Below, piece after piece: positions 11,976 to 37,834 of a stretch of 64,000 nt of DNA. Position 1 is the first letter of the stretch, and every line of letters starts with the position of its first letter. Where the stretch lies: NCBI GenBank assembly GCA_037189525.1, contig JBBCJC010000002.1, forward strand, positions 736,001-800,000, given 5' to 3'. The notes under the pieces were generated by a model. It worked only from the letters and a program-made list of their open reading frames with translations, ran no database searches and was not told the DNA's origin. The DNA comes from Gemmatimonadales bacterium (lineage in GTDB: Bacteria; Gemmatimonadota; Gemmatimonadetes; Gemmatimonadales; GWC2-71-9). A program made the position numbers and the translations under genes.

Positions 11976-11977
11976 GG

Positions 11978-20322: not shown

Positions 20323-21468
20323 ATGCCAACATATAGTGTCGATCTCACGACCGAGCGTGGCGTTTCGCGGGTGTCCTTTACCCTCGATGACGACCGCCCG
20401 TTAGGGCTGCAGATCAATCATATCCTCGAGGAGTTTCGCCAGCGGGGACTGGTGCTCAAGGGTGGTCCCGAGGACGAGTTGATGGTCGCCTGGAACGGGC
20501 GGCCGGTCGATGGCAGCAGGACGCCGCATGCGCTCGGCATCTCGCCGCTGCACGCCATCGAGTTGCGGATGCGGCCGCGGAGCGCCGCCGTGGTCGCCCG
20601 GGTCGAACCCCCCGCGGCGCCCTTCCTGTCGAAGACATCGTACCTGGCGCTGGTGACGGCCTGTACCGGCGCGGCGATCGCGTGGATCGTGACGGCCACG
20701 CTGTTCACGGATCTGGGAGATGTGCTGACCAGCTACGGGACGCTAGACGTCGTGGTGGCCACCGTGCTCGGTGCGGCGGTCGGGGGTGTCCTGCTAGGTG
20801 CGCTTGCGCGGGCTCGAAGCGAGTCGGTGGTGGTTGGGCTGGCGGCGGGAATCGGGCTCGGAGCCGTCGGGGCGGCCATGGGGGCATTCTCGGGTCTCGT
20901 GATTGCGGGGTACGCCGGGCTCGGCGACTCGCGCCAGAGCTTCATCGTCGCGCGGTTGGTGACCTGGGCGTTGGCCAGCGGCTTCCTCGGCATGTTCCTG
21001 GCCTTTCGCTGGGTACGGACGCATGCCGTGGTACCGTTCGAATCGCTGCTCTGGGGCTGTGGAGCCGGTATCGTCGCCGCCTTGCTGCTGTCGTTGCCGG
21101 GGCCGTCCGATCTCTGGCAATTGCTGGCGTTTCTGGTGGTCGGCGCGGGGACGGGCGCCGGTGTCGTCCATCCCGTCATGGTCCGTTCGCTCGGCGTCAT
21201 CGAGCTGGAGCGCACCGGTGCCGGAACCGTGGGCCTGCTGGGTCATCGGGGCTGGATGGTGCCCTTCCACGGAACGGCTGCGGTCGGTCGAACCCTGAAT
21301 GTGCGCAGCGAGCAGGGACGCTGCCAGGTGGCTCTGACCGGGGCGGCGGCTGAACCGGTCACCCTGGGCGGACGTGCGGTCAGCGGCCCGCACGACCTGC
21401 TCAATCAGGATACCATCACTATCGGGTCGCGCGTCTTCCTCTACCGCCGTTTTCCGGAGGCGAGCTAG
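20323..21468 (+). CDS. Membrane protein: N-terminal ubiquitin-like (YukD/EsaB-like) domain, multiple TM helices, C-terminal FHA-like region
   Basis: N-terminal ~85 aa with 'NGRPVDGSRTPHALGI...IEL'; multiple Gly/Ala-rich hydrophobic helices; C-terminus 'VTLGGRAV...LLNQDTITIGSRVFLY'. Confidence 0.7.
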   Translation: MPTYSVDLTTERGVSRVSFTLDDDRPLGLQINHILEEFRQRGLVLKGGPEDELMVAWNGRPVDGSRTPHALGISPLHAIELRMRPRSAAVVARVEPPAAPFLSKTSYLALVTACTGAAIAWIVTATLFTDLGDVLTSYGTLDVVVATVLGAAVGGVLLGALARARSESVVVGLAAGIGLGAVGAAMGAFSGLVIAGYAGLGDSRQSFIVARLVTWALASGFLGMFLAFRWVRTHAVVPFESLLWGCGAGIVAALLLSLPGPSDLWQLLAFLVVGAGTGAGVVHPVMVRSLGVIELERTGAGTVGLLGHRGWMVPFHGTAAVGRTLNVRSEQGRCQVALTGAAAEPVTLGGRAVSGPHDLLNQDTITIGSRVFLYRRFPEAS

Positions 21469-22754
21469 TGAAAGGCGCGGCGGGTGTCGCACTCTGCCTG
21501 ACTCTCTTCGGGGCGTCGGGTCTGGTCGGGCAGGACGGCGACGTGACGCTGCTGCGCTGCGGCGAGCGATCGGCTCGGCCGTGTCTGATGACCACCGTCT
21601 CACTTCGTCCGGAGCAGGCTCGTCAGTTGGCGGGGCGCTCGCCGGACAGCTTGAGCGTGGCCTGGCGGGCGCGATTCCTGCGGGACACCAGCCTGGCGGG
21701 CCGCGCGCAGAGAACCTGGTCGAGCGCAATGCGCGGAAATCGGGTGCTGATCCTGGTCGATGTCAGCGGCAGCATGAAAAATCTGGGGATCGGGACCGCC
21801 AAGCTCGTCGTCGGAAACTTTCTCCGTACGCTCGATTCGCTGCCCGCCGGGTCGGTCCGGGTGGCGGTTGCGCCGTTCGGCAGTGTCAGCGTTGCCGACC
21901 GGATTGCCGCTGCCCGATTCACGACGCCCGACTCGGCCCGCCACGCGATCGACCGGCTGCCCAATCCGGATCGGGAGAATACCGGGCTGTATAGCGCGGT
22001 GGAGGCAGGCGTCGAGCGGCTGTCGCGTGAATTGGCGGAGGCTGGCGAGGGCCTCGGTGCACTGGTCGTGCTGACCGATGGCGACAACGACGTCGGGCGG
22101 CCTGGAGACGATCCGGGATTGCTGGCGGGGACCGCCGGATTGACCCGTGCCGCGCAGGCCGTGGATCAGAGTGCGGCATTCACCACCATCGTCGGGATCG
22201 GCAATCTCAACGCGCAGGCGTTGAGAACTCTTGCGGGCCCCCGAGGGCGGGCGTATCTCAAGAGCTTGGACGCGTATGAGCTGGCCCGTCCGCTGGCGGA
22301 AGTGCGCGACCTGTTTGCGATCAGCTGGGAAGTGCTGTTCCCGTTGTCCGTCGCGCGCGAAGGTCTCGGGCGAGGGCCTGCGTCGTTGGTGCCTTCGCTC
22401 GGCGCCGTGGCGGGAACGGCATTGTGGCGGCCGCCCGTGATTGCATTGCCCGCGTTCGTCGGCGTGGCGTCGTCGGCATTGCTCCCGAGCGGCGTTGGAG
22501 CGGCTCCGGTCGGTTTCGTTCTGGATCGGCGCTGGCCGCTCGCGTTGATGGCGGGGGTGCTTCTGTTCTTGTTATGGTTCGTGGCTCCCCGGTTGTTGTG
22601 GCCATCATCGCCTGCGGTGGCGCTTGCGCAGGGTGCGCCGACACCGCCCAAGGTGGTGTCACCGCCCGCGGGTGGATTGCGAGCCGATGTGAAAGAAGTC
22701 GCGCCGCGCCGGCCGTCGGACACGACGGCGGCCAAAGCGCGGCGCGCCCAATAG
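21468..22754 (+). CDS. vWA-domain protein with signal peptide and C-terminal TM anchor
   Basis: MIDAS motif LVDVSGSMK...T...VLTDG; TM 'WPLALMAGVLLFLLWFVAP'. Confidence 0.85.
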   Translation: MKGAAGVALCLTLFGASGLVGQDGDVTLLRCGERSARPCLMTTVSLRPEQARQLAGRSPDSLSVAWRARFLRDTSLAGRAQRTWSSAMRGNRVLILVDVSGSMKNLGIGTAKLVVGNFLRTLDSLPAGSVRVAVAPFGSVSVADRIAAARFTTPDSARHAIDRLPNPDRENTGLYSAVEAGVERLSRELAEAGEGLGALVVLTDGDNDVGRPGDDPGLLAGTAGLTRAAQAVDQSAAFTTIVGIGNLNAQALRTLAGPRGRAYLKSLDAYELARPLAEVRDLFAISWEVLFPLSVAREGLGRGPASLVPSLGAVAGTALWRPPVIALPAFVGVASSALLPSGVGAAPVGFVLDRRWPLALMAGVLLFLLWFVAPRLLWPSSPAVALAQGAPTPPKVVSPPAGGLRADVKEVAPRRPSDTTAAKARRAQ

Positions 22755-22800
22755 CAGCGTAGCAGTGAGACAATCCTATTCTCTTTGAGGGGAGCCAGAC

Positions 22801-23271
22801 ATGCCAGTCGTGAAGGTCACGCGGGCCGGGGTCAAAATGGCGCCGCGACAGGTGCCGACCGAGACCACCGCGACCATTCTGCCGATGACCGTCGACCGGG
22901 TCGGGCAGGAGGCGCTCGAGGACGAGCAGCCCACCAAGGTGTCGAGTCTGGCCGAAGCGTTCGAGAAGTTCAAACCGGCGCTCGATTTCAAAGCCAACGT
23001 GGGCGACGAGGGAACCGAGTTTGCGGCGGACCTCGAGTTCAAGAGCCTCAAAGACTTCGACCCCAAGCGGGTGATGACGCGCGAGCCCGGCAAGCGGAAC
23101 GACGTCGCCGATCTGCAGAGTCAGATCGATCTGCTGCACCGGATGCGCGAGCGGTTCGCCGTGTTGTCGGTCCGGCGGGCCTGGGACAATCCCGAGCAGC
23201 GGAAAGAAATCATCGAAGCGGTGGCCGAGTTCCAGGATGCGTTGCGGAAGATCTCCGGAGGTGACGCGTGA
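22801..23271 (+). CDS. tssB: T6SS contractile sheath small subunit (subtype iii-like)
   Basis: SLAEAFEKFKP...LEFKSLKDFDP pattern; 156 aa; GTGA-coupled to the sheath large subunit. Confidence 0.8.
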   Translation: MPVVKVTRAGVKMAPRQVPTETTATILPMTVDRVGQEALEDEQPTKVSSLAEAFEKFKPALDFKANVGDEGTEFAADLEFKSLKDFDPKRVMTREPGKRNDVADLQSQIDLLHRMRERFAVLSVRRAWDNPEQRKEIIEAVAEFQDALRKISGGDA

Positions 23272-24602
23272 GCGAGGTCAAGACCGCGCAGGACATCATC
23301 GCCAAGAAGGGCGCGAGCAAGGCGATCGAGGAAATCTTCAACGTGATCCATCCGGCGCCCTCCAAGACGGCGCTCAAGGACATTTTCACCGCCGAGTCGG
23401 CGTCGCAATTCCTCAAACGGGTAACCGACTTCTCGAGCCTGCTGTCCGCCGAAGACAGCTACGATCAAGCGCTCAAGAAACTCGATGCCCAGCTCAAGTC
23501 GCTCGAGTCGACCCGCGACGAGGTGCTCAAGCAGATCTACGAGAAGATTCGCCCGATCGAGCGGAGCTACCGTGAAATCCAGCTCTTCTTCGAGAACGCG
23601 GAGGTTCGCGACAGCGTCCAGCGTCCGCCGGTCGAGTTCTTCATTTTCAACGCCGACACTCGTGCGGTCACGAGCGACGTCAACAGCTCCACCGTGCAGG
23701 CCGTCGACGAGTTCGTCCAGAGCCGCAACGACAGCTTCAACTTCCGCCAGTTCATCTGCAACATGGTGCTGCCGGGATACGTGCCGGATAATGTCCGGAA
23801 GCGGTTCGAGGACATGGCCAACAAGTGGGGCATGCTGCTGATCGGCGATCTCAAGGACGAGCTGTCCTTCAAGTCGCTCTCCGATCAGTTCCGGACCGAT
23901 GGCGGCGCGTACGAGTTTCTCAAGCGGCCCGAGGATCGTGCCGCGGCCGACGTGGTCATCGCGGGTTTCGTCAAGCTGCGCGACAAGCACTGGTTCGAGG
24001 CGGCGGACGACGACAGCGAGAATGCGGACCTATACGGCCCGTCGTCGCTTCTGTTTGCCGGGTCGCTCGCCCGGACGGATCGGACCACGGGCGGCGGTAT
24101 TGCGCAGGGACCGGTCGGGATGATCTTCGGACAGATTCGCGGCCCCGAAAAAGCCCGGATCGAGCCGCGGATTTCTCAGATGGAGCATCTGTCGATGGAA
24201 CGACAGGTCGTCACCATTATCCGGAACGAAGACAATCAACTCTGCTTCGTGGGCAGCCGGACCCAGGCCGAAGATCCGAAGGGCGTGCTCAAGTTCTTCA
24301 CGTCCTACCGGGTGCTGCGTTACCTGGAGCGCCGGATTGCCGTCTATCTCCGGCGGGTGGCCGAGCAGCGGCTCACGCGCGATCTGGTCAAGGAACAGGT
24401 GCGCAATCCGATCGAGGAGTTCCTCGAGGACGAGCTCAAGAAGGGAACGATCTACAAGTACGACATCGATATCGACATGGACGAGGACAAGTTTGCGCAG
24501 GGAGTCCTCGACATCAAGCTGGAAGTCTTGCCGGTTGGTCCGGCCGAGACCTTCGAGCTCAAGATCGATACGCCCGACTTCAAGAAGGACGGTAAGGAGT
24601 AA
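23268..24602 (+). CDS. tssC: T6SS contractile sheath large subunit (DUF5458 / subtype iii-like)
   Basis: IERSYREIQLFFEN, MVLPGY, C-terminal sheath-like domain; 444 aa. Confidence 0.85.
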   Translation: MSEVKTAQDIIAKKGASKAIEEIFNVIHPAPSKTALKDIFTAESASQFLKRVTDFSSLLSAEDSYDQALKKLDAQLKSLESTRDEVLKQIYEKIRPIERSYREIQLFFENAEVRDSVQRPPVEFFIFNADTRAVTSDVNSSTVQAVDEFVQSRNDSFNFRQFICNMVLPGYVPDNVRKRFEDMANKWGMLLIGDLKDELSFKSLSDQFRTDGGAYEFLKRPEDRAAADVVIAGFVKLRDKHWFEAADDDSENADLYGPSSLLFAGSLARTDRTTGGGIAQGPVGMIFGQIRGPEKARIEPRISQMEHLSMERQVVTIIRNEDNQLCFVGSRTQAEDPKGVLKFFTSYRVLRYLERRIAVYLRRVAEQRLTRDLVKEQVRNPIEEFLEDELKKGTIYKYDIDIDMDEDKFAQGVLDIKLEVLPVGPAETFELKIDTPDFKKDGKE

Positions 24603-24616
24603 CGGCGGAGGATTGC

Positions 24617-25009
24617 ATGGCCGATGACGAGGGCCGGGCCGACGATGTCGGCGGGGTGAATCCGGACGGGTCGCCCAAGCGCGATCTGCGGTACAGCAGT
24701 CATGAGGATCGCTCGGTCCGGGTCGATCGCGAGCTGGACGGCACCGGTCGCCTGGCTCGTGGTGATCGTACCAAGATGTCGGTGCTCAATTTCTCGTCGC
24801 GTCACCCGGTCCGCACCGAGCGCGATCCGGAGTTCACCTTCCGCCCCGCTCCGGCCGCTGCCTCGGCGCCGCCGGCTGCGGAGGTTCCGGCTCCCGCCGC
24901 GTCGGAGGCCAAGGCGCCTGACGATGCGGCGGGATCGACGGCTCCACAGGAGTCGGCCGATCGATCGCCGTCCGTGATGGATCGGGTGAAACATCTGTTC
25001 GGGTTTTAG
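24617..25009 (+). CDS. Hypothetical, largely disordered protein between sheath and tube genes
   Basis: GGAGGA RBS; Pro/Ala-rich linker; amphipathic end MDRVKHLFGF. Confidence 0.6.
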   Translation: MADDEGRADDVGGVNPDGSPKRDLRYSSHEDRSVRVDRELDGTGRLARGDRTKMSVLNFSSRHPVRTERDPEFTFRPAPAAASAPPAAEVPAPAASEAKAPDDAAGSTAPQESADRSPSVMDRVKHLFGF

Positions 25010-25036
25010 GTCTCTCGTCAACGCATCGGAGCTGCC

Positions 25037-25477
25037 ATGGCCACGTATAACCGCGTCAAAGTCAAAATCGATTCCGTCGAGTTTCGTCCGGTCGAGGCCA
25101 AGTACACCATTACGCGCAATGCCAACCAGGTTGGTCGTCGGGTCGGCGACTCGCTGATCGGCCGGGTCGAAGTCTGGATGGACGCCAGCGTGCTGGACAA
25201 CCTGCCGCAGTCCGCTCAGATCGAACTCTGGAAAATCGCCACCGAATCCAAGGACCCGCTCCATAAGGTCGAGGTGACGTGGTACCTCGATGAAGCGGAC
25301 AAAGTGCTGCATGCGGTCGAGTTCATGGGCTGGATTGCCGCCTTCGAGGTCGGGAATCCCCAGGCCGACGTCTCGGGCGGCGGTGTCAGCTCGGTGCAGT
25401 TCAAGAACCTGTTGCGGCTCGAACTCGCCGTCGTGGTCGACGAGTCGAATGTGAGCAAGCACAAGTTCACCAAGTAG
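25037..25477 (+). CDS. tssD: T6SS tube protein Hcp (TssD-like)
   Basis: 146 aa, beta-rich, 'YTITRNANQVGR...GRVEV...ELWK' similar to subtype-iii TssD; position between tssC and tssE. Confidence 0.7.
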   Translation: MATYNRVKVKIDSVEFRPVEAKYTITRNANQVGRRVGDSLIGRVEVWMDASVLDNLPQSAQIELWKIATESKDPLHKVEVTWYLDEADKVLHAVEFMGWIAAFEVGNPQADVSGGGVSSVQFKNLLRLELAVVVDESNVSKHKFTK

Positions 25478-25480
25478 CGA

Positions 25481-25494
25481 GCGCCCTTCGGCGC
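25481..25494 (+). other. Small hairpin just after hcp
   Basis: GCGCC-CTTC-GGCGC with no U-tract; possible mRNA stability or attenuation element. Confidence 0.3.
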
Positions 25495-25507
25495 GCGGGA
25501 CCGCATC

Positions 25508-25900
25508 GTGCCTTCGATTGCCCTTCCTCTCCGGATCGATGCGACCGGTTCGCTCGTCCGGCAGGATGATTTCGACGCGGTCGTCGGAATCATCGGCAAG
25601 ATGGCCGGAACGACCTCGACCACCTGGCCCCACGCCAGGTGGTTCGGGTTGTTCGAAGCCTTCATGGAAGCCGGGCGCCGTCAGCAGCAGGATCACGAAT
25701 CGCTCAAGGACGCCATCAACCTCGCCCTCCGCGAACTCGGTGTGCAGCAGTTCCGGGTCCAGGCGGTGACGACGGTGCGGAGCGATCACGGTTTCGGTCA
25801 CCGCCACTTCCGGATCACCATGACCGACGCCGAGGGTCGCTCTCGTTTTGCCGAGTTGGATGGAGAGGGCCGCCGCGCCGAGACGGAATCGCCATCATGA
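25508..25900 (+). CDS. tssE: gp25-like baseplate wedge protein
   Basis: IALPLRI...FG...LKDAINLALRE; size and synteny. Confidence 0.65.
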   Translation: MPSIALPLRIDATGSLVRQDDFDAVVGIIGKMAGTTSTTWPHARWFGLFEAFMEAGRRQQQDHESLKDAINLALRELGVQQFRVQAVTTVRSDHGFGHRHFRITMTDAEGRSRFAELDGEGRRAETESPS

Positions 25901-27744
25901 AAGTCACCGTCTTCGTCACGATCGGCGATCTGGTCCTCCGCAACAGCGAACTCGACGTCCTCGAGGTCGTGCAGGAACTCGGTCAGCATACCACCTGCCG
26001 GATCGAGTTCATTCGGGATTCCGCGCTGGATGTTTCCCTCGATCAGCTGCTCCGTGACGAAGTGGTGGTGACGCTCAAGGCGGAGGGCGGCCAGATCATC
26101 CCGATCTTCCGAGGAACGATCGGCGACGGGGTGCAGAGCCACCTGCTCAACTATGGCTCGCGTTTCCGTCTCGAGGCCACCTCGGAGTCCGAACGGCTCG
26201 AGTACGTCAATACCGCCTACTTTCCAAACAGCACGTTCGGCGACGTGGCCCAACAGTTCGGGGTCCGGATCGACGGATCGATCCGCCGCGACCAGACGCC
26301 ACTCGACCTGGTCCAGTGGAACGAGACCGAGTTTGCCTTCCTGAAACGGCTGGCCGACGAGCACGGCGCTTTCCTGGTCACTCACGGCCCGCAACCGGAG
26401 ATCCGGACCGAGTTCAAGGATGAGGGTTGGGAACTCATCTGGGGCGACAGCCTGCTCGAGGCGAGCGTGCGGGCGCGACCGACCAGTCATGGCGTGGCGG
26501 GCGCGAGTTACGATCCGCTCACCAAGCACACCCATCGGCACGCGGGCGTCAGGCAGAATCCGCCATCGTTAGGCGGCGCCGCGAAGATCGTCAATGCCGT
26601 GACCGACCTGGCGCGGCAGATGGGCGGCGACCCCGGGCTGGAGTTTCCGAGCGCGCGGGAGACGACGCATCAGAGTTTCAAGACCATTCTGCGCCAGGAG
26701 AGCGAACGGGCTCTCGGAAGCGCGGTGCTGGTCGAGGGACACAGCGTCAAAGTCGGTCTGGGCGCCGGTGACCTGGTCGAGTTGGTCGGCGGGGTCAACT
26801 TCACCCTGCCGACGACCGGCAAGCTCGGTCTCATCAAAGTCGTCCATACCTTCCAGGATCAGCACTACAGCAACCGGTTCGTGGCCACGCCGTGGAAGAC
26901 GTTTACCAACCTCGAGCGTCCCCCGACCCCGCGGGAGCGCACCGTGGTGACGGCGGAAGTGGTCGAGACGGCGACGGATCCAGAGAAGCTGGGACGGATT
27001 CGCATCGCCTACCGATGGCAGACCGGCGCCGATATGACCGGTTGGGCCCGGATCGCGGCCCCGCACGCGGGCAACGGGCGCGGCATCATGTTCCTTCCGG
27101 AGGTCGGCGATGAGGTGCTGGTGGCCTTCGACGACGGCGATCCGGAACACCCGATCGTGATCGGCGCGCTCTGGAACGGCCGGGACCGCCCGCCCGAGGT
27201 TACCGAAAAGAACACCGCCAAGCGGATCATCACCCGGTCGGGCAGCACGATTCAGTTGCTCGACGACGAAGGGAAAGAAACGGTCGAGATCTTCACGCCG
27301 GAGGGGCGCTGTCTGGTCCAGCTCACTAACCAGGGTGGGCATCCGGTCGTGACCGTCTATTCCGATGGCGACATCGCGCTGGAGGCCAAAGAAGAGATTC
27401 GGGTCAAGTGCAAAAAGCTGGTGCACGACGTGGAAACCGATGTAATCGTCAAAGCCGGTGGTGACGTTTCGGTGGATGCTGCGGCCAATGCCGTCATCAA
27501 GGCCAACGTCGACGCGGCGCTGTCGGGAACCAATGCGATTCTCAAAGGCGCCGCCATGGTCGAGTCGGTCGCTGGCGGCGTCAACAACGTCGTCGGGGCC
27601 ATGGTGCAGATCCAGCCGCCCGGTTTCATGGGCAAACAGGTCAATCCCAAGTCGGTCTCGGTGCCCAATGTCGACGTCGGCTCTCGGCCGACGCCGCAAT
27701 CGGCTGATCCGGAGCGGACGGCGGATCCGGAGACGCCGCGATGA
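25897..27744 (+). CDS. vgrG: VgrG spike protein
   Basis: VQWNETEFAFLKRLA; DPEKLGRIRI...WARIAAPHAGNGRGIMFLPEVGDEVLVAFDDGDPEHPIVIGALWN; ATG 25897 overlaps tssE stop. Confidence 0.95.
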   Translation: MKVTVFVTIGDLVLRNSELDVLEVVQELGQHTTCRIEFIRDSALDVSLDQLLRDEVVVTLKAEGGQIIPIFRGTIGDGVQSHLLNYGSRFRLEATSESERLEYVNTAYFPNSTFGDVAQQFGVRIDGSIRRDQTPLDLVQWNETEFAFLKRLADEHGAFLVTHGPQPEIRTEFKDEGWELIWGDSLLEASVRARPTSHGVAGASYDPLTKHTHRHAGVRQNPPSLGGAAKIVNAVTDLARQMGGDPGLEFPSARETTHQSFKTILRQESERALGSAVLVEGHSVKVGLGAGDLVELVGGVNFTLPTTGKLGLIKVVHTFQDQHYSNRFVATPWKTFTNLERPPTPRERTVVTAEVVETATDPEKLGRIRIAYRWQTGADMTGWARIAAPHAGNGRGIMFLPEVGDEVLVAFDDGDPEHPIVIGALWNGRDRPPEVTEKNTAKRIITRSGSTIQLLDDEGKETVEIFTPEGRCLVQLTNQGGHPVVTVYSDGDIALEAKEEIRVKCKKLVHDVETDVIVKAGGDVSVDAAANAVIKANVDAALSGTNAILKGAAMVESVAGGVNNVVGAMVQIQPPGFMGKQVNPKSVSVPNVDVGSRPTPQSADPERTADPETPR

Positions 27745-27751
27745 TCCGGTC

Positions 27752-29482
27752 ATGAGCGAGTTCAAGAGCCTCCGTCCGCCCGAACGCAGCGCGACCGACA
27801 TTGCCCGGGAGCTGCGCGAGCACTTTACCCGGTCTCTCTATGAGGTGACGGGTGCGCAGGCCCAGCCCGATCCGGTGCTCGGCGCGCTCTTTCATGCGCT
27901 TGCCGTGCAGGTCGATCGGGTCTATCAGGAAGCGGATCAGGTATTCTTTGCGGCGGCGCTCGATGACCTGATTCGCGGTCTCGGGATGCCCGCACGGCTG
28001 GCTCGGCCGGCCCAGGCCGTGGTGCAGTTCTCTCAGCTGCAGGGCCGAGAGACGCTTGCTCCGGAGACGGAGCTGATCGGCTATCAGGCGACCGGTGCGC
28101 AGATCGTCTTTACCCCCGACGCGCCGGTCGACATTGCGCCGACGGAAATCGTCTTTGCCGGAGTTGCGGAGGCGGGACGCCTGTCGACCCTGCCGGGGGC
28201 GCGGTTGCCTTGGACCAATCAGCCGATCCTGCCCGGGAATTCGACGCCCATCGACCTCTCGCCGGCCGCCCCGACCCTGTTCCTCGCGTTTGAAACGGAC
28301 GCCGAACACCTGAGCCGGATCGGTCTCTACGTGGAGGCCGCCAGCCAGGCATCGCCCATCCTTGGGGTGCTGGCCCGGAGTCCGTGGCAGTTGCTCGACA
28401 ACCGCGGACAGGTCTCCGAACGCGGGGTGCTCCGGGCGTCTCGAACGCGTGGGGGTATGCAGCGGCTGGATTTCGTCAAAGACCGGCGGCCTGCGCTCGA
28501 GGATACCGGCACAATCGACCGTCTGGTCCCGCTGGTCGGCGGTGTTTACGGAGCAAGCGTATGGCTGATGCCCGAACTGACGCCGGATCGTCGCTGGCGT
28601 TCGGTGATCCCGCCGTCGATTGCCACGGCAGTGCCGCGGGTGCTTCCTCCCGGGCAGGAACGAGCGCTGGATCGCCAGCTGGCCTGGTTGCAGGTGCCTC
28701 TCCCGGCTGGCAGCCGCGGCGTGGCGAGCCAGATTGCCCGCATCGCGGTCAACTGTGTCACGGCGTCGAACATCGAAGCGTGGAACGAGCAGATCGACTT
28801 CGGCCGGATGGGCGCCGTAGTCAGCCACCGTCCGCTTGGCGCAACCGATCGGCATATCATGGGTGTGCTCGGTGTGACGGGTGAAGCCGGGACCCCCTAT
28901 CTCGATATCTCGGATCTGGAGGCGCCGGCCGGATCGGGGCGATACCGGTATCGGGGCAACGCCAGCTTCGAGTTCACCCCTGCCAAGCAGGCGAGCGGGC
29001 GCTTCGACGGCTACGGAATGATGCGACTCCTCTACTGCGACGGCGAAGGCGGCAACGGAATCGCGGTGGGGGAGATCAAGCAGATCCGGAGTGAGCTTGC
29101 CCGGAATCCGACGGCGCGGGTGGCCAGCCTGACGCCGACACGGGGCGGGGCGGCGCCGCCGGCATACAGCGATGCGCGCGACCGTTTCGCAGAGTTGCTC
29201 CGCACTCGCGAACGAATCGTGACCCCTGCCGATATCGAGATCGCCGCCAAGGCGACCGATCCCCGGATCGGCAACGTCAGCGTTACCAGCGCATCGCAGA
29301 TTACCGATACCGGGCTGGAACTGGTGACCGATGTAACGGTTTCGGTGTCGCCCGACGACTTCGCGGACCCGGAGGCGGAACTCGAACGTCTGCGGACCGA
29401 GCTGGAGCAATACCTCGGCGAACGCTGCATGATCGGGCAGCAAATCCGGGTCGCGATTGCCGAGGAGCGGCGCGCCTCATGA
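27752..29482 (+). CDS. tssF: Baseplate protein TssF (gp6/J-like)
   Basis: DPVLGALFHALA...ARPAQAVV; NCVTASN; C-terminal RERIVTPADIE. Confidence 0.8.
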   Translation: MSEFKSLRPPERSATDIARELREHFTRSLYEVTGAQAQPDPVLGALFHALAVQVDRVYQEADQVFFAAALDDLIRGLGMPARLARPAQAVVQFSQLQGRETLAPETELIGYQATGAQIVFTPDAPVDIAPTEIVFAGVAEAGRLSTLPGARLPWTNQPILPGNSTPIDLSPAAPTLFLAFETDAEHLSRIGLYVEAASQASPILGVLARSPWQLLDNRGQVSERGVLRASRTRGGMQRLDFVKDRRPALEDTGTIDRLVPLVGGVYGASVWLMPELTPDRRWRSVIPPSIATAVPRVLPPGQERALDRQLAWLQVPLPAGSRGVASQIARIAVNCVTASNIEAWNEQIDFGRMGAVVSHRPLGATDRHIMGVLGVTGEAGTPYLDISDLEAPAGSGRYRYRGNASFEFTPAKQASGRFDGYGMMRLLYCDGEGGNGIAVGEIKQIRSELARNPTARVASLTPTRGGAAPPAYSDARDRFAELLRTRERIVTPADIEIAAKATDPRIGNVSVTSASQITDTGLELVTDVTVSVSPDDFADPEAELERLRTELEQYLGERCMIGQQIRVAIAEERRAS

Positions 29483-30387: not shown

Positions 30388-32027
30388 TGGAGCGTGATCC
30401 GTACTTCCGCTCGGTCAACTGGACGACCGGGATGTTGCTGACCCCGGAGCATTTCCTCCGACAGGATCGGTATGTCGAGGAGCAGGTTGCCTGGTTGCTC
30501 CGCTATTGCCTGTCGGGGACGGGCCTGGTCGGCGGCGGCGTTCGGCTCGATGCGGTGGAGCAGGGGCTGGCCAAATTCGATCCGAAGATCGAACTGGTCA
30601 ACGACGGCGATCGCCTGCGCATCACGGTACTCCGGGCGCGCGGCATCACGCCGAACGGAGAGATCGTCGAGGTCGACGAGTCCCGGCCGTTGCATGGCGA
30701 AGTCCGGCGGGGCGATCTGGCCGGCGTCAGCGAGTTGCTGGTCTATGTCGTTCGGATGCCCGAGAAGGAGCCCGATCCGGAGTCGGTTGGCGCCGACCCC
30801 GGCAATCCCAATCAGGCGGCGCTCAATCGGATCCGCTACGAGGTCCAGCTGGGTATCACTGCGGAACTGGGCCCGGTCTCCATGGCCGTCGCTCGCTTGC
30901 GGCGAGCGTCCGAATCGCTCGGCTTCGAACTCGACGGGCAGTACATCCCGCCATGCGCATCTTTGATCGCGCACAGCGCGTTGCACAATGCCGCAACCCG
31001 GATCCAGTCAGAAGTTCGGTTGCTGAGCAATGAGTATCAGCTGGTTCACGAGCGCGCGGGACATTTTGCCGACCGGACCGCGGCGCGCGGGGTCGATGTG
31101 CGCAACGATCTGGAAATCCGGGCGTTCGTGGAGCGCGCCGTGCTGGCGCTCGAGACAGCGGCGTACGAGACGGCTGATCTCGCCATTCCGCCGGTGCGAT
31201 TCTTCCAGCAGATCGAACGCGCCAGCCGGCTGATTGCCCTGGCTCTCAACCTCAGCCCCTCGACGCGACAGTTCTTCAAGGACTTGGGCCAGGTCGACGG
31301 CGGCTACACCGAGTTGCTCGATGCGGAGCAGGGCCTGCTGGCCGTGCAGCGGGAACTCGACCGGCGGGAAGAACTGCGGCCGCTGGTGGTCCGGTCGACT
31401 GACACGTTGCAGCGGCTCCGCAGGCTGGTCGACGCACTGGCGGGCAAGTACGTCGATTACCGGCAGAACCGGAACATCGAGTCGATCCGCTTCATGCTGG
31501 ATCGCGACGGCGAGCATTTCTACGAAGCCGTCACCTCGCCCTCGCATCCGCAGCGCGATGGCGACCTGCTCACCTTCGTCTTCACGCAGCTCGAACTGAG
31601 CGGCCGTCACGAATATCGCGTCGTGTTGACCGGTGATCCGCGAGCCAGCGCGCAGTGGGCCGTGGGCCAGGAACTGAGCGTCACGCTGCGTGTCAACGCC
31701 TCGGGTGGACCACGAGCGCCGATGACCCGGTCGGTGATGTGCGAGGTCGAGGGGCAGCGCAACTTCGCGGTCAATTTCGATACCCCGCAAGATGTCGCGA
31801 CGATTGCAGGCCTGACGGTCACGGTGCAGCCTGGCCACGGGATTCGGGGCGCAGTGCTGTTCCGCCGCCGGCTGGGCATGGTCGGATCGGGCAGCGGTGC
31901 GGCAATGCCCCTGCCTTCGCCGCCTGTCGTCTCGGAACCGCCGGTGTCCGCCCCGATCCCGTCCGCCGAGACACCGGCGCCGTCTCGGCCGCCCAAGATC
32001 AAAGTGAACCTTCCGAAACGGTCGTAA
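30387..32027 (+). CDS. tssK: Baseplate subunit TssK with C-terminal extension
   Basis: VNWTTGMLLTPEHFLRQD and YIPPC motifs. Confidence 0.85.
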   Translation: MERDPYFRSVNWTTGMLLTPEHFLRQDRYVEEQVAWLLRYCLSGTGLVGGGVRLDAVEQGLAKFDPKIELVNDGDRLRITVLRARGITPNGEIVEVDESRPLHGEVRRGDLAGVSELLVYVVRMPEKEPDPESVGADPGNPNQAALNRIRYEVQLGITAELGPVSMAVARLRRASESLGFELDGQYIPPCASLIAHSALHNAATRIQSEVRLLSNEYQLVHERAGHFADRTAARGVDVRNDLEIRAFVERAVLALETAAYETADLAIPPVRFFQQIERASRLIALALNLSPSTRQFFKDLGQVDGGYTELLDAEQGLLAVQRELDRREELRPLVVRSTDTLQRLRRLVDALAGKYVDYRQNRNIESIRFMLDRDGEHFYEAVTSPSHPQRDGDLLTFVFTQLELSGRHEYRVVLTGDPRASAQWAVGQELSVTLRVNASGGPRAPMTRSVMCEVEGQRNFAVNFDTPQDVATIAGLTVTVQPGHGIRGAVLFRRRLGMVGSGSGAAMPLPSPPVVSEPPVSAPIPSAETPAPSRPPKIKVNLPKRS

Positions 32028-32032
32028 TCGCC

Positions 32033-34687
32033 ATGGATTTCAACCGCCTTTCGATGGATCTGACCGCCGCGCTCGAGGAGTCGCGGCGTGTGGCTGGTCG
32101 TGCGGGTTTGGCGTATATCCAAGCCAAGCATCTGCTGATTGCCTTGCTCGAACCTCAGGGCGCCTTGGGACGAACGGCGGCCAAGCTGCAGCTCGACGCC
32201 GCTGCTGCGCTGCGGGCCGTGACGGCCGTGGCCGATGGCAGCGACGCGGTCAAGGCCGACGGTGCGCGGCAACCGGTTGCGGGCCGGAGTCTTCGCGACC
32301 TGCTCGACCGGGCAACGGCCCGTGCCGATGCCAAGGGCGTCCGTACGATCGGACCGCTCGAGGTCGTGGCGGTGGCCATCGACTCGGATCAGGGCAATCT
32401 GGGGCCGGCGCTTCGTGATGCCGGATGGACGGCGGACAAGCTAACTGCAGCGATGGCGTCTCCCGAGGTGATGCAGCCGGCGGAGGAACGCGCCGGCGAC
32501 GACGGCGGCAGCGTGCTTGCCAAATTCACCCGCGACCTGACCGAAGCGGCCAGGCAGGGCAAGCTGATGCCCGTCGTTGGTCGGGACGCGGAAACCCGGA
32601 ACGTGATCCAGACTCTGCTGCGCAAGACCAAGAACAACCCCGTTCTGGTCGGCGATCCGGGCACCGGCAAAACTGCGGTCGTCGAGGGGCTGGCGCTCCG
32701 GATCGTCGCGGGCGATGTCCCTGAGTCGCTCAAGCAGGCTCGGCTGCTGGCGCTCGACCTGACCGGGTTGGTGGCGGGCGCCAAGTATCGCGGCGAGTTC
32801 GAAGAGCGGATCAAGGCCATTGCCGATGAGGTCCGTGAGCTCGACGACGTGATCCTGTTTCTCGACGAGATCCACACCCTAGTCGGGGCCGGCGGGTCGG
32901 CAGGTGGGATGGATGCCGCCAACATCCTCAAGCCGGCCCTGGCTCGCGGGGAACTCCGCTGCGTCGGCGCGACGACCTTCGACGAATATCGCGAGTCGAT
33001 CGAGAAGGATGGAGCCCTGGCGCGTCGCTTCGAGCGGATCGTTTGCGACGAACCCGACGACGAGATGACACTGGCCATGCTGCGGGGCGTCAAAGGCCGC
33101 TACGAAACCCATCACGGCGTGGCGATCACGGAGGACGCGCTCCAGGCCACGGTCAAACTGGGCCGACGCCATATCCGCGACCGGTACTTTCCCGACAAGG
33201 CGTTCGATGTGCTGGACGAGGCCGCCGCGCGTCTCCGGATGCAGCGGGAGGCCAAGCCCAATCTCCTGGACGAGAAGGAGCGCGCGCTGGTTCGTCTCCG
33301 GACCAAGCTGGAAGGTATCCGCGCCAGCGGTGAGGGAGACGCCTCCGCCGTCGAGCGCGAGATCGCCGCCGCCGAGCAGGATCTCGCGGCCGTGGCGGCG
33401 CGATGGGACGAGGAGAAGACGGTTGCCGACGGACTGCAGACTACTCGTCAGGCCATTCAGGACAAGCAGCGCGAGCTGGCGGCTGCCGAGGCCCAGGGTG
33501 ATGTCGCCAAGGCGGCGGAACTGCGCTACGGTGCGCTCAAATTCCTGGCGGAACAGGAGACTGATCTGGTTGCGCGCCAGGCGGCCATTCTCGAGCGGGG
33601 CGTGATGGTACCGCAGGACGTCCGCTCCAACGACGTTGCCGATGTCGTCGCCCGCCGCGCCGGGATTCCCATTTCCCGGATGCTCGAAAGCGAGCGGGAT
33701 CGGTTGCTCAAACTGGAAGAACGCCTGGCCGAACGGGTCATCGGTCAGCCGGAACCGGTCGAAGCGTTGGCGGAAGCCGCTCGGCGGATGCGAACGGATC
33801 TGCGCAAGAAGCGGAAACCGGCATCGTTCCTGTTCGTCGGCCCGACCGGGGTGGGCAAGACGGAACTGGCCAAGGGGCTCGCGGCCGCGCTGTTCGACGA
33901 CGAGAGCGCGTTGATTCGGATCGACATGGCCGAATACAAGGACGCCGGGTCGATCTCCGGTCTGATCGGATCACGACCGGGGCTGGTCGGATCGGAGCAG
34001 GGTGGTTTCCTCACCGAGCAGGTACGGCGTTCGCCGTATTCGGTGGTACTGTTCGACGAAATCGAAAAAGCCCACGCCGAGGTAATGGACCTGATGCTGG
34101 GGCTGCTCGATGAGGGCCGCCTGACCGACGCGAAGGGCCGCCTCTGTGATTTTACCAATACGATCGTGCTCCTGACGTCCAACCTCGGTGTCAAAGAGGC
34201 CAACGCGGTCGCCAAGACGGCCGACGAGCGGCGTGAGATCATCATGCAGGTGGTCCAGAGCACGCTCCGACCCGAGATCTTCAATCGCCTGGGCGGCGTG
34301 ATCCCGTTCAACTCGCTCGAACTCGACAGCCTGGAGCGGATCGTCCGGATCCATCTGGCGAGTCTGGCCGACCGGGTTCGGGACGAGTACAAAGCGTCGC
34401 TGGAAGTCGACGCGGACGCCGTAACGCTGCTTGCGCAGCTATCATATGATCCGGCGTATGGCGCCCGACCGGTGGAGCGGACCATCGATCGGCATCTGTT
34501 GAGTCCGCTGTCCCGGCTGATCATCGGTGGCGATGTCACCAAGGGCACGGTGGTCCGCGTCGTCAAAGACGGTGAAGAGGTCGTTCTCCTGGCAGGCACT
34601 CGGGAAGAGGTGGATGCGGAGGCCAAGAATCTGGCCGCCGCTGCGACCGCGCCGGCTGCGGACAGCGGAGAAGCGAAGGAGGCGTGA
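32033..34687 (+). CDS. tssH: ClpB/ClpV-family AAA+ ATPase (T6SS sheath disassembly)
   Basis: Two Walker A motifs (GDPGTGKT, GPTGVGKT), Clp N-domain, coiled-coil middle domain; lies within the operon. Confidence 0.85.
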   Translation: MDFNRLSMDLTAALEESRRVAGRAGLAYIQAKHLLIALLEPQGALGRTAAKLQLDAAAALRAVTAVADGSDAVKADGARQPVAGRSLRDLLDRATARADAKGVRTIGPLEVVAVAIDSDQGNLGPALRDAGWTADKLTAAMASPEVMQPAEERAGDDGGSVLAKFTRDLTEAARQGKLMPVVGRDAETRNVIQTLLRKTKNNPVLVGDPGTGKTAVVEGLALRIVAGDVPESLKQARLLALDLTGLVAGAKYRGEFEERIKAIADEVRELDDVILFLDEIHTLVGAGGSAGGMDAANILKPALARGELRCVGATTFDEYRESIEKDGALARRFERIVCDEPDDEMTLAMLRGVKGRYETHHGVAITEDALQATVKLGRRHIRDRYFPDKAFDVLDEAAARLRMQREAKPNLLDEKERALVRLRTKLEGIRASGEGDASAVEREIAAAEQDLAAVAARWDEEKTVADGLQTTRQAIQDKQRELAAAEAQGDVAKAAELRYGALKFLAEQETDLVARQAAILERGVMVPQDVRSNDVADVVARRAGIPISRMLESERDRLLKLEERLAERVIGQPEPVEALAEAARRMRTDLRKKRKPASFLFVGPTGVGKTELAKGLAAALFDDESALIRIDMAEYKDAGSISGLIGSRPGLVGSEQGGFLTEQVRRSPYSVVLFDEIEKAHAEVMDLMLGLLDEGRLTDAKGRLCDFTNTIVLLTSNLGVKEANAVAKTADERREIIMQVVQSTLRPEIFNRLGGVIPFNSLELDSLERIVRIHLASLADRVRDEYKASLEVDADAVTLLAQLSYDPAYGARPVERTIDRHLLSPLSRLIIGGDVTKGTVVRVVKDGEEVVLLAGTREEVDAEAKNLAAAATAPAADSGEAKEA

Positions 34688-35796
34688 TGCGGCGCATGGT
34701 GCTGATGACGGTGCTGGTTGCACTCTGTGCCTCGAATCTCGAGGCGCAGATTCCGCTGCCGTTCTTCAAGAAAAAGAAGAAGCCGCCGGCCGAGGCGGTG
34801 AAGCCACCCGAAGAGTTGCCGGCGCCAGGCACGGCTCCGGCCATTGCGCCCGCGGCTGCACCGGCCACGGCAGGCACCGCAGCAACGCCAGCGCAAGATG
34901 CTGCTGCGCCAGCCATCGTATCATCCGGCGCCGCCGTGCAGTCACAGGAGGAAAAGCAGGCGCTCCAGAATGCGATCCAGCAGGCGCTGGCAGCGGACCA
35001 GGCGGCGGATACCACGGTGGCGCACATTCGCGAGCGGATGGCGCGCTGGACCCAGGTCATGCTGCAGGACCCGACCAATGTCGTGGCACAGAGCGCATTG
35101 CAGCAGGCGCGGGACGATCTTCGCGCAGCCAACGAACGGGCACTGCAAGCCGGTAAAGCGGATCAGGCGACGCGCGATGTGGTCGCCAGCCGACTCAATC
35201 AGGCCGAGATCGACATCCGCGGTAAGAACTGGACGACGGCCGAGCAGCATCTGCGCTTCGTGCTCGATCAGGATAGCGCCAACCCGCGGGCCAGAAGTCT
35301 GATGGCGGAGCTCGAGAAGGGCCGGCGGCTTTCCGACCTGCAGCGCCAGGCGCTGTATATCATCCCGGTGCTGGTCATTCTGGCGGCGGGCCTGGTGCTG
35401 GTCGTCAAGTTGGGCGTCAAGTATCGGGAGTCGCGCCAGCAGAAAGCAGATGCGATTGCCGCGACCCGGGCTGCCGTACTGCAGATCGTCGACGGCGTCG
35501 GCCGGGGTAAGCTGGTGACTCTCGACAAGGACAAGGGCATCTTCAAGATCGGCGCTGCGCAGGGGCCGGCCGATGCCGAGAAGAACGATCTGGTCATCAG
35601 CGACTCGGCCAGCCAGGTATCGCGCTACCATTGCACCCTGGTTCGGAAGGCGGGGCAGTACTACTTGATCGACTCCAGCCTGAACGGCACCGCGGTCAAC
35701 GGCGATCCGCTCAAACGGGGCGATCACTTCCTGCTCGACGACGGCGACGAGATCACCCTGGCCGAGGTGACCCGCCTCAAGTTCCTGCACACCTGA
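34684..35796 (+). CDS. Signal peptide + TPR-like periplasmic region + TM + cytoplasmic FHA domain
   Basis: FHA 'NDLVI...VSRYHC...DSSLNGTAVNG...LDDGDEI'. Confidence 0.85.
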   Translation: MMRRMVLMTVLVALCASNLEAQIPLPFFKKKKKPPAEAVKPPEELPAPGTAPAIAPAAAPATAGTAATPAQDAAAPAIVSSGAAVQSQEEKQALQNAIQQALAADQAADTTVAHIRERMARWTQVMLQDPTNVVAQSALQQARDDLRAANERALQAGKADQATRDVVASRLNQAEIDIRGKNWTTAEQHLRFVLDQDSANPRARSLMAELEKGRRLSDLQRQALYIIPVLVILAAGLVLVVKLGVKYRESRQQKADAIAATRAAVLQIVDGVGRGKLVTLDKDKGIFKIGAAQGPADAEKNDLVISDSASQVSRYHCTLVRKAGQYYLIDSSLNGTAVNGDPLKRGDHFLLDDGDEITLAEVTRLKFLHT

Positions 35797-35803
35797 GGGG
35801 CCG

Positions 35804-36619
35804 GTGGTGCCAGGCTATCGCCTGATTCAGCGGCTTTCGCGGCCTGGCGCGGCGCCGATCTGGGCTGCAGAGGACTCGGCGGGCAACCAGGTCGCCCTCA
35901 AACACCTCCTGCCGGCCGACCGGCAGCGGCTCGATCTCTTCCATCGTTTCCAGACCGAAGGACGGTTGCAGCGCGAACTCGGCGGGCAGCGACACTTGCT
36001 GCGCTGCTACCGTACCGTGCTCGAACCCGAGCCGGTTCTCGTCCTCGAACTGGCGAGTGGCGGGAGCCTGCGGGAACGTTTGGAAAGCGGGCCGTTAAGC
36101 GTTCAGCGGGCCGCCGACGTGGTCTGCCAGGTAGCCGATGCGCTCGACTGGCTGCATGGCAACGGCGTCTATCATCGCGACGTCAAACCGTCCAACATCC
36201 TGATCATGGCCGACGGCACGGTTCGCCTGGCTGATCTCGGTGTGGCGGCCTGCGGGACTCCGCCGCGCGGCTTGCCCGAAGGATGGATCGAAGAGGAGAT
36301 CGGGACGCTGGGGTACGCCGCGCCGGAGTTGCTCCGTGACCCCGCGCTGGCCACGGCCGCCATCGATGTGTATGCGCTCGGGGTGACCTTGTGCGAGTTG
36401 CTGATCGGAGCGCTGCCGTTGGTCTTTCCCGAGGGTGAATCGGAGGCCGAACTGCGGCAGCGGCTTGCGCAGGGACCGACGCCCGTGCTTCCGCGCGGAC
36501 TGGAGGAGCCGATGCGTACCGTTGTCCGTGGAGCGATTGCGCCGCTGCCCACCGAGCGGCCTGCGACGGCGGCGGCGTTTGCGGCGGCCGTGACCCGAGC
36601 AGCGAACCGGATGGTGTGA
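35804..36619 (+). CDS. Hanks-type Ser/Thr protein kinase (soluble, kinase domain only)
   Basis: VALK, HRDVKPSN, DLG, GTLGYAAPE, DVYALG. Confidence 0.9.
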   Translation: MVPGYRLIQRLSRPGAAPIWAAEDSAGNQVALKHLLPADRQRLDLFHRFQTEGRLQRELGGQRHLLRCYRTVLEPEPVLVLELASGGSLRERLESGPLSVQRAADVVCQVADALDWLHGNGVYHRDVKPSNILIMADGTVRLADLGVAACGTPPRGLPEGWIEEEIGTLGYAAPELLRDPALATAAIDVYALGVTLCELLIGALPLVFPEGESEAELRQRLAQGPTPVLPRGLEEPMRTVVRGAIAPLPTERPATAAAFAAAVTRAANRMV

Positions 36620-36640
36620 TGCGCGGCTGCCGGACCGGCG

Positions 36641-37834
36641 CTAGGGGCCGCCGGCGGTCACGGTCCAGCGATCGCGCCGATCGCGGAAACGGTCGATGTG
36701 CAGATGGAGGCCCGTTCCCGCCCGATCGTTCCAGCCGCGGGCCCGGGCCGCCTGGATCTGCGCCTGCAGGATGGCATCGGTCGAGAAGTCTTTGACCCGG
36801 ATTCCCGAACGGCCGAACGCATCGATCAGAAAACGAACCTGTTCGGTGGAGAGGTCGCGCACGCGAATGTCCAGCGCGCTTCCTTTGCCGTACAGTGAAA
36901 CGTGCTCGGCGTGGTCCTGGCCGGTAATCGTAAACGGACGACTGTGGGCGGCCTGGAACGCGGTCTGGACCCGGTCGACCGCCTGGCGGAACTGATCGGC
37001 GGTCAGGTTCGAACTCAGCGTCTGACTCAGGTCGGCCAGCTTGCCGCCAGCTGCGCGAAGGCCGGCGGGCGGGTTGAGGCGATGAGCCTGGTAGATGTCC
37101 CGGACCGCCTTTGCCACCGTGTTGATGCTGGGCTCGACCCACGGGTTCCGGGCAATCGGGCTCGCGTCCAGCACGGTGATGGCGTCGGCCAACTGGCGAA
37201 GCCCTTCCTCCTGCAGGCCCAGATCGAGCAGTGTCGCTCCCCGTTCCAGACTTCGGGTCGATTCTACCATCAGACTGTCGTAGAGCCGCCCCTCGGCTTC
37301 GGTGAGCGGCGGTGGTCCCTCCGGTCCCCCGGCAGCCGATCGGACCGTGCGGACTAGCAGGGACGCGCCGTAGACACCGGCCGCGACGATCAAACCGATG
37401 GCCAGCCAGGCCCAGATCGGGAACCCGACCCGCGCCGATCCCGCTCGCCGCCTCCGCTTCCACCACCGAGCCCGGCGAGGAGCCTCGGGCGCATAGACCG
37501 GTGCGGGGTCGGGCTCCACCGGCTTGGCGCGCACCGCTCCGGTGACGAACTCGTAGCGCGCTGCAGGGGCAAACTCGATGATATCGGCGTCCGACAGTCG
37601 CGTGGCGGCCGAGATCTGGCGGCCTCCCACGCGTACGGTCGTGGCGCTGGAGAAGGGCGTCAGGTAAAAACCGTCTTCGCGCTCGGTAATCGAGGCGTGC
37701 CGGTCGGCGATGCCCGGCAGGTGGAGCCGGAGCGTGCTCGACGCGGAGGATCCGATCCAGAACGGCGACCGGTCGACGACGGCGGCCTCGCCCCGAGTCG
37801 GGGCAGCCGGGGCAAGGCGAGGAGGCGCAGGCAT
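36641..37834 (-). CDS. FHA domain + TM + C-terminal M15/LAS-like peptidase region
   Basis: FHA-like 'IGS...IADRHASI...LSDADII'; TM 'IWAWLAIGLIVAAGVYG'; C-terminal GSALDI...HLHID. Confidence 0.7.
   Translation of the reverse strand: MPAPPRLAPAAPTRGEAAVVDRSPFWIGSSASSTLRLHLPGIADRHASITEREDGFYLTPFSSATTVRVGGRQISAATRLSDADIIEFAPAARYEFVTGAVRAKPVEPDPAPVYAPEAPRRARWWKRRRRAGSARVGFPIWAWLAIGLIVAAGVYGASLLVRTVRSAAGGPEGPPPLTEAEGRLYDSLMVESTRSLERGATLLDLGLQEEGLRQLADAITVLDASPIARNPWVEPSINTVAKAVRDIYQAHRLNPPAGLRAAGGKLADLSQTLSSNLTADQFRQAVDRVQTAFQAAHSRPFTITGQDHAEHVSLYGKGSALDIRVRDLSTEQVRFLIDAFGRSGIRVKDFSTDAILQAQIQAARARGWNDRAGTGLHLHIDRFRDRRDRWTVTAGGP

Follow-up and report, generated by a model that had tools for sequence, protein, structure and literature searches.

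The stretch analysed here, hereafter the window, comprises 64,000 nt of contig JBBCJC010000002.1 from a Gemmatimonadales bacterium, and all coordinates count from its first letter. Judged from its genes, it encodes a type VI secretion system (T6SS) of a separate lineage, related to subtype iii, which lacks both of the known membrane complexes and is conserved in two phyla, Gemmatimonadota and Acidobacteriota. The genes that flank its core, encoding a protein kinase and membrane proteins with ubiquitin-like (Ubl), FHA and vWA domains, likely form a third kind of envelope anchor. An earlier sequence-only reading of this DNA had proposed an undescribed T6SS variant, and the proposal is supported: a search of the genome yielded none of the canonical membrane-complex genes, the sheath protein TssC nests in neither the annotated iii nor the annotated i clade, and conservation of the core extends to the flanking genes. 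The genome (G000) has a size of 4.65 Mb and a completeness of 98.1%; every core gene is present in a single copy, and the GC content is flat over the window.

From 20323 to 36619, listing and translation of the open reading frames (ORFs) give 14 ORFs on the + strand with intergenic gaps of -4 to +46 bases, which confirms the co-oriented, tightly spaced run of sheath, tube, baseplate, spike and ATPase genes noted previously; a convergent gene for an FHA protein with a transmembrane (TM) segment (36641-37834, - strand) closes the locus. The core is a single co-oriented unit in the order tssB-C-(orf)-hcp-E-vgrG-F-G-K-clp, and the revised true starts are 25897 for vgrG, 27752 for tssF and 32033 for clp. 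Pfam and NCBIfam profiles identify TssB, TssC, VgrG, TssG, TssK, the Clp ATPase, the vWA protein, the two FHA proteins and the Ser/Thr kinase. The small sheath subunit TssB (22801..23271) matches PF05591 with 25.8 bits and TIGR03358 weakly (hhalign 95% with subtype iii, 89% with subtype i), and the large subunit TssC (23268..24602) matches PF17541 with 76 bits at a cut-off of 25. The tube protein Hcp/TssD (25037..25477) aligns with TssD of subtype iii at 82% and with Hcp of subtype i at 0.2%; PF17642 itself does not match it, and an acidobacterial orthologue matches that family at E 0.045. The spike VgrG (25897..27744) is recognized by PF04717, PF05954 and TIGR01646 (117.6 bits). The baseplate comprises the wedge proteins TssF (27752..29482; weak matches to TIGR02243, E 2e-8, and phrog_6, hhalign 94% with TssF of subtype iii) and TssG (29479..30387; PF06996, 46 bits), and TssK (30387..32027; PF05936, TIGR03353 E 2e-20), which has a conserved C-terminal domain, a Pro-rich linker and a basic end motif. 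These are followed by a dedicated Clp/TssH ATPase (32033..34687). The calls of TssF and Hcp rest on weaker profile matches than those of the other core genes. The probable gp25-like wedge TssE (25508..25900), a member of a conserved family, is called by position and size, with no profile match in hhalign, PHROGs or PDB sequence searches. For TssC and TssE the PDB sequence searches were of no use, and for TssK they yielded weak matches only, as did the PHROGs search of the locus proteins. With TssE taken by position, the general T6SS gene set (TssB/C sheath, Hcp, VgrG, PAAR, TssE/F/G/K, Clp) is present.

By eye, the sheath, tube and TssG sequences had looked subtype-iii-like. Comparison by hhalign bears this out for the sheath and the tube, which are of the PF17541/TssD type found in T6SS-iii, and leads us to reject it for TssG, which scores 96% with the T6SS-i references vs 44% with those of T6SS-iii. 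More generally, TssB, TssC, Hcp, TssF and VgrG are nearer to subtype iii, and TssG and TssK are as near to i as to iii, or nearer to i, the references being 2-5 sequences per family. The window TssC and TssC of T6SS-i do not match (hhalign 1%). A library-wide TssC search gave 150 matches, of which the 77 with a length of 400-620 aa entered a 97-row FastTree phylogeny; an IQ-TREE phylogeny of 39 rows hand-picked from the 97 agrees with it. The rows include five annotated T6SS-iii and four T6SS-i sequences, T6SS-ii, T6SS-iv and extracellular contractile injection systems (eCIS) being left out. Within this sampling, the Gemmatimonadota-Acidobacteriota clade receives 100/100 support and lies outside the clade (99/97) that holds all five annotated T6SS-iii rows, so that TssC nests in neither the annotated iii nor the annotated i clade. 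Its hosts are not Bacteroidota. The Gemmatimonadota-Acidobacteriota clade and the T6SS-iii clade share one group, apart from the T6SS-i rows, and the base of this group is an unresolved polytomy. Three further iii-like TssC lineages of the group fall outside both clades (P0050/P0053/P0056/P0058, P0070/P0132 and P0090/P0137). The Clp ATPase forms a clade with its orthologues (support 100), apart from the two other Clp ATPases of the genome, the Clp of T6SS-iii and ClpV. The presence of TssK and of a dedicated Clp presumably also speaks against T6SS-iv and eCIS.

Neither TssJ/L/M with TssA, as in T6SS-i, nor TssN/O/P/Q/R, as in T6SS-iii, had been recognisable in the locus, and a search of the whole genome proved negative as well, less firmly for TssO/P/Q/R. 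The seven families searched, representing TssN, TssR, DotU, IcmF, SciN, ImpA_N and TssO (PF17555, PF17643, PF09850, TIGR03348, PF12790, PF06812, PF17561), all remained under their cut-offs in G000, and tblastn with 19 reference proteins (TssN/O/P/Q/R, TssJ/L/M/A) stayed without a match at E<0.01. A TssN profile reached at best E 0.89 on the six-frame ORFs of G000; TssN was detected in 2/2 Bacteroidota plasmids as a positive control and in 0/20 related genomes. The searches for TssJ/L/M/A had an E. coli control, which was over the cut-off each time. TssM was found in three of the 20 related genomes (G212, G214, G217), and in the two checked, G212 and G214, it belongs to separate canonical T6SS-i loci with TssA/L/B/C/K (L122, L124, L125), so that two subtypes coexist there. 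For TssO/P/Q/R the search of G000 had few references and lacked a positive control, and even where a system is truly of subtype iii, TssO, Q and R escape profiles in 23-31% of cases (PMC10781749), which makes their absence less firm. Weak matches of G000 to DotU (E 0.44), ImpA_N (E 0.44 and 0.80) and TssO (E 0.008, in a 1100-aa frame) were rejected, being under the cut-off and distant from the locus.

The membrane proteins noted earlier within or beside the operon, namely a Ubl/multi-TM/FHA-like protein, a vWA-TM protein and two FHA-TM proteins, were all recovered by profiles and fold search. The first (20323..21468, +) is a predicted inner-membrane protein, with a beta-grasp Ubl domain (aa 1-85), six TM segments and an FHA domain (aa 289-379), which its AF2 model, fold matches and co-occurrence make a candidate baseplate dock. 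The model, built from 29 sequences with pLDDT 88, shows a beta-grasp followed by six long helices, the EccD/YukD-type arrangement of beta-grasp and TM bundle, and then an FHA sandwich. In a fold search (VIA) the best match of the Ubl part is the Ubl domain of EccD5 (Z 11.1, root mean square deviation (rmsd) 2.2, 86 aligned residues), with ubiquitins at <=9.7, and the FHA part matches an FHA domain (Z 11.2, rmsd 1.8, 80 aligned); these matches concern the two terminal domains and barely cover the TM bundle. The ESM Atlas gives YukD at 0.82 for the Ubl part, a lead only. The second protein (21468..22754, +; PF00092) consists of a signal peptide, a periplasmic vWA domain with an intact MIDAS (D98/S100/S102/T172/D204) and a conserved Cys pair (C31/C39), a TM segment and a cytoplasmic tail. 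The tail carries a motif with a conserved Thr, R-x3-[DEQ]-x-T, present in 53/54 distinct tails vs 25/938 control tails, the motif having been defined on those same vWA-TM tails.

Downstream of clp, FHA1 (34684..35796, +; PF00498, 54 bits) has a signal peptide, a periplasmic helical domain, a TM segment and a cytoplasmic FHA domain; it is followed by a soluble Ser/Thr kinase (35804..36619, +; PF00069, 124 bits), which keeps K, HRD-x-K, D-x-G and G-T-x-x-Y/W and lacks a conserved TM segment in the window copy. Judged by what we take to be the canonical FHA motifs, FHA1 keeps S-R-x-H and NG, with Ala in place of the usual first Arg, and would be the only FHA protein of the locus with near-intact phosphothreonine-binding motifs. 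FHA2 (36641..37834, -) has the order FHA-TM-periplasmic domain; its fold search lists are filled by the FHA domain (Z 17.5), with none on the periplasmic part, which shows an invariant D-H-x-E-H...G-x-x-x-A-x-D...H-L-H pattern. FHA2 does not match PF08291, and the ESM Atlas places it in an unnamed cluster (0.83). The His/Asp pattern resembles, in our view, that of M15 peptidases such as TagX. TagX acts as a wall hydrolase (PMC13584744), and FHA2 is possibly a cell-wall hydrolase. In an acidobacterial FHA1 (L084:4567-6744) the shared helical-TM-FHA part is preceded by a large sugar-hydrolase-like domain (PF06439) in the periplasm.

The distribution of these genes follows that of the core. A TssC scan of genome contigs found 68 loci, with 67-94% identity to the window in Gemmatimonadota and 52-56% in Acidobacteriota; four of the records are labelled otherwise (Bacillota, Acidimicrobiales and two Janthinobacterium) and may be mis-binned, as by identity they group with the two phyla. 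TssC is patchily distributed, being present in 6/201 Gemmatimonadota genomes (including G000) and 8/301 Acidobacteriota genomes (including G214). The Ubl-6TM-FHA gene and the periplasmic domain of FHA2 occur in the same six Gemmatimonadota genomes. The vWA gene lies directly upstream of tssB in 36/45 informative loci, and the TM-FHA gene in 37/45; FHA1 follows clp in all 19 stretches that hold clp. Among 13 Gemmatimonadota stretches the kinase is adjacent in 11 and FHA2 in 10. Loci of the Longimicrobium type have the order tssK-FHA1-kinase-FHA2-Ubl-vWA-tssB, the module being relocated as a block, and in G104 and G212 Ubl-TM-FHA is fused in frame to vWA-TM with compatible topology. By this synteny and co-occurrence across relatives the flanking genes are system-specific. 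In G204 and G208 a second vWA/FHA1/kinase/FHA2 copy lies downstream of the T6SS (L077:7431-12489, L080:4760-9055). In the T6SS-negative congener G145 the flanking genes are ~3.3 kb apart on one contig vs 37 kb in the window; the island therefore comes and goes in one piece and ought to bring an anchor with it.

We consider it rather probable, by analogy with TssN/TssR, that the module is a phosphorylation-gated inner-membrane anchor on which TssK docks via the Ubl domain. The baseplate would dock on a module of Ubl-6TM-FHA, vWA-TM, FHA1 and FHA2, the assembly of which would be switched on by the adjacent kinase. The kinase would phosphorylate the Thr in the vWA-TM tail; FHA1 would then bind the phosphorylated tail and cluster the membrane proteins; the membrane-tethered Ubl would recruit TssK, like the Ubl-like domain of TssN in Bacteroides; FHA2 would open the wall locally; and finally the sheath would fire Hcp-VgrG-PAAR with the cargo encoded upstream, to be recycled by the dedicated Clp. 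The data show which genes are present, how the Ubl and FHA domains fold, that module genes strictly co-occur with TssC and are in two genomes fused, and that the Thr motif of the tail is conserved. Precedents come from other systems: TssK is bound by TssN, a TM bundle with an EccD-like Ubl domain, and TssR contains a vWA domain (PMC10781749); the scaffold of type VIIb secretion (T7SSb) combines YukD, FHA domains and a pseudokinase (PMC12637312); and in Agrobacterium Fha binds phospho-TssL (PMC13584744).

In Acidobacteriota the TM-FHA protein has no Ubl domain, and the Ubl homologue is a separate 86-aa gene (32-36% identity over 63-75 aa to the window Ubl), found in exactly those eight of the 301 genomes that have TssC and ending with TNG in 13/13 copies. 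What appears to be new is that this version is a free Gly-ending protein encoded in an E1-RING-Ubl-E2 operon that tracks TssC. The divergent operon, with the order E1-RING(4TM)-Ubl-E2-kinase, is complete in 13/13 loci with at least 7.4 kb of upstream sequence (L046:3230-6893, also L042-L064, L108, L110, L112, L114 and L120), eight more loci being too short. E1, RING, Ubl and E2 are adjacent also in G316, G340 and G420; in G474 the RING, Ubl and E2 genes lie at the start of a contig, and in G265 all four genes lie on another contig. The enzymes are a ThiF-type E1, a UQ_con-like E2 and a 4-TM RING-like protein; the Pfam matches of E2 and RING are under the cut-off, and the catalytic motifs are kept in E2 (HPN..Cys, 11/11) and E1 (GxGxxG and the Cys motif, 15/15). 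By these motifs, the acidobacterial relatives have the parts expected of a conjugation system (E1, E2 with a catalytic Cys, RING, Gly-ending Ubl). G000 has no E1/E2/RING orthologue, and the free Ubl matches nothing there but the fused domain. The split and fused forms suggest that conjugation and fusion may yield the same product. Non-covalent use of the free Ubl, as with YukD (PMC12637312), is by analogy equally plausible. We put forward only tentatively, as less probable than the anchor itself, a fifth T6SS subtype with an anchor made by ubiquitination, in which an acidobacterial membrane RING E3 would join the free Ubl to TM-FHA and so make the dock of the baseplate, and Gemmatimonadota would have hard-wired the product as the Ubl-TM-FHA fusion. 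In L042-L064 a C-terminal R-x-R-L is common to TssK (12/13), E2 (9/11) and the kinase (10/11) and is absent from E1 (0/15); it may serve all three as a docking signal. Burroughs, Iyer and Aravind reportedly described prokaryotic operons of the E1-E2-RING kind from Acidobacteria at an earlier date.

Several observations weigh against an anchor of this kind. The genomes that carry the system are small in number, and some are related to one another. Nine of the 45 loci have no vWA gene directly upstream of tssB (three have the Ubl gene in the same locus, and at least two have both genes further upstream); the kinase is not adjacent in two of the 13 Gemmatimonadota stretches; and FHA2 is found in 0/6 downstream stretches of Acidobacteriaceae, a PP2C phosphatase standing there instead in 6/6. 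In the Ubl protein and in FHA2, the binding motifs of the FHA domain are degenerate. A lipobox scan of the operon gave no lipoprotein, and no beta-barrel is encoded, so that no outer-membrane part is known and the passage of the tube across the outer membrane lies outside what the model explains. Finally, the FHA, kinase and phosphatase genes of T6SS-i have an accessory, regulatory part (PMC13584744), and co-occurrence is therefore no proof of a structural role.

This last point leads to the strongest competing explanation, which we regard as improbable though worth serious attention: the five genes would serve Thr-phosphorylation signalling only, similarly to PpkA-Fha1-PppA, and the anchor would be unrecognised elsewhere or borrowed from housekeeping envelope proteins. 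The kinase, FHA proteins and PP2C are indeed parts of that known pathway, the operon encodes no outer-membrane protein, and G204 and G208 have the second copy of the vWA/FHA1/kinase/FHA2 genes; a 6-TM protein with an EccD-like Ubl domain is, however, foreign to that pathway, and the island seen as a unit in comparison with G145 should bring its own anchor. Less probable still is a very divergent T6SS-iii, in which Ubl-6TM-FHA would be a permuted homologue of TssN and vWA-TM a homologue of TssR. In its favour, the sheath, tube, TssF and VgrG resemble iii more closely than i, the domain types are found again, the iii-like group has a polytomy at its base, and the TssN profile is shallow and built mostly from Hymenobacter. 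However, neither the Ubl nor the TM part showed detectable homology to TssN, hhalign giving 0.2% for Ubl vs the TssN C-terminus and 1.0% for TM vs TM, no better than unrelated controls; besides, the domains stand in the opposite order, an FHA domain is absent from TssN, TssR is a ~800-aa lipoprotein, TssO/P/Q were not found, and TssC and Clp form separate clades. Finally, a contractile system held at the inner membrane, intracellular or released by lysis and never crossing a living outer membrane, would agree with the lack of an outer-membrane component and with the peptidoglycan-binding domains of several cargo proteins, but it is very unlikely, as TssK, TssG, the split TssB/TssC sheath and the dedicated recycling Clp are T6SS features, and PAAR, DUF4123 adaptors and the variable cassette fit contact-dependent delivery.

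The system shares elements with several known ones. With T6SS-iii of Bacteroidota the locus has in common the closest sheath, tube, TssF and VgrG families, the lack of detected TssJLM and TssA, and, without detectable homology, the themes of TM plus Ubl and of the vWA domain (PMC10781749). It differs in its phyla, in a TssC with 21-24% identity and a clade of its own, in the separate Clp clade, in the absence of detected TssN/O/P/Q/R, in the N-terminal position of Ubl ahead of 6 TM and FHA, unlike in TssN, in the C-terminal TM of the vWA protein instead of the lipid anchor of TssR, and in having a kinase and FHA proteins. T6SS-i resembles it in TssK and TssG, for which i and iii are about equally close, and in the PpkA/TagE-Fha1/TagH-PppA pathway (kinase, FHA and, in Acidobacteriaceae, PP2C), and the predicted target Thr sits on a membrane protein as in Agrobacterium TssL (PMC13584744); T6SS-i differs by TssJ/L/M/A and a TssC without a match, and the window by membrane-anchored FHA domains and a kinase without a conserved TM. 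The order of Ubl followed by multiple TM recalls EccD of T7SSa, and the toolkit of Ubl, FHA and kinase that of YukD-YukB(FHA)-YukC in T7SSb (PMC12637312), but the operon has no FtsK-type ATPase or WXG100 gene, the TM segments number six, the linkage is to a contractile tail, and the kinase, unlike the T7SSb pseudokinase, keeps its catalytic motifs. The E1, E2, RING-like protein and Gly-ending Ubl of the acidobacterial relatives are like those of Bil/Bub and CBASS Cap2, as far as the available accounts of these go, but are tied to T6SS instead of phage defence, with Ubl fused in the window. No JAB peptidase was noticed beside the acidobacterial operon, no search aimed at JAB having been made.

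A literature search found no description of the lineage; most subscription papers lie outside its coverage, and supplementary tables could list such loci as incomplete clusters. A subtype i4b T6SS has been reported on plasmids of Acidobacteria and Gemmatimonadetes (PMC9113992), in agreement with the canonical T6SS-i loci that G212 and G214 carry separately; it is probably a different system, because the seven plasmid matches of the window TssC (21-24% identity) are all from Bacteroidota. Bongiovanni et al. (2024) report T6SS-iii in no genome outside Bacteroidota among >20,000 and call the origin of its membrane complex unresolved (PMC10781749). If the proposed anchor is real, a phage-like tail has been anchored to the envelope a third time, via a non-homologous Ubl/vWA membrane module in two soil phyla, and a membrane-tethered beta-grasp would be a recurring dock. 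The acidobacterial E1-RING-Ubl-E2 operon would offer a candidate role for bacterial ubiquitination outside phage defence. As the system is missed by standard profiles, T6SS counts in Gemmatimonadota and Acidobacteriota are likely too low. It is directly testable, since the TssC loci include those of two cultured, non-pathogenic hosts, Granulicella mallensis X5P3 and Granulicella sp. S156.

The ORF between tssC and hcp (24617..25009, +) encodes a conserved low-complexity, disordered protein with a C-terminal amphipathic helix, a possible membrane tether, which could hold the end of the sheath and so stand in for TssA/TagA, missing here. Across 61 loci, this gap holds 54 distinct ORFs of at least 60 aa, with a hydrophobic moment >0.55 in 29/54 vs 181/1136 controls; the window copy has 0.52.

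Upstream of the core lies an effector region (7840-19732). Its first part (7840..13408, -) encodes a PAAR-extension protein, an OmpA-like/peptidoglycan-binding protein and a 799-aa protein (PF05488, PF00691, PF01471), likely spike cargo, and these genes are found again next to the core in 8-12 related loci. The second part (13606..19732, +; PF13503, with Tla1 and weak M6 matches) is a variable, likely effector-immunity-adaptor cassette, containing a 1299-aa OmpA-like/HExxH protein, a downstream beta-propeller, a small Ig-like protein and a DUF4123 chaperone; the congener G124 lacks the 13.4-19.8 kb part at this site, as expected of an effector cassette. The OmpA-like proteins were also considered as wall anchors, a reading set aside because no TM segment or signal was found in the 1350-aa ORF, and none by eye in the other. 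Elsewhere in G000 an orphan pair of DUF4123 and small Ig-like genes (L121:10334-11091, C2 ~222.3-223.1 kb) marks a possible second effector locus. Farther upstream, genes for an imelysin, a di-haem oxidoreductase and an M48 peptidase (3816-7780) are absent at this site in G124, and a Zn-ribbon/TM/PEGA/Sel1 protein (1909-3786) has homologues near the T6SS in 13 related loci.

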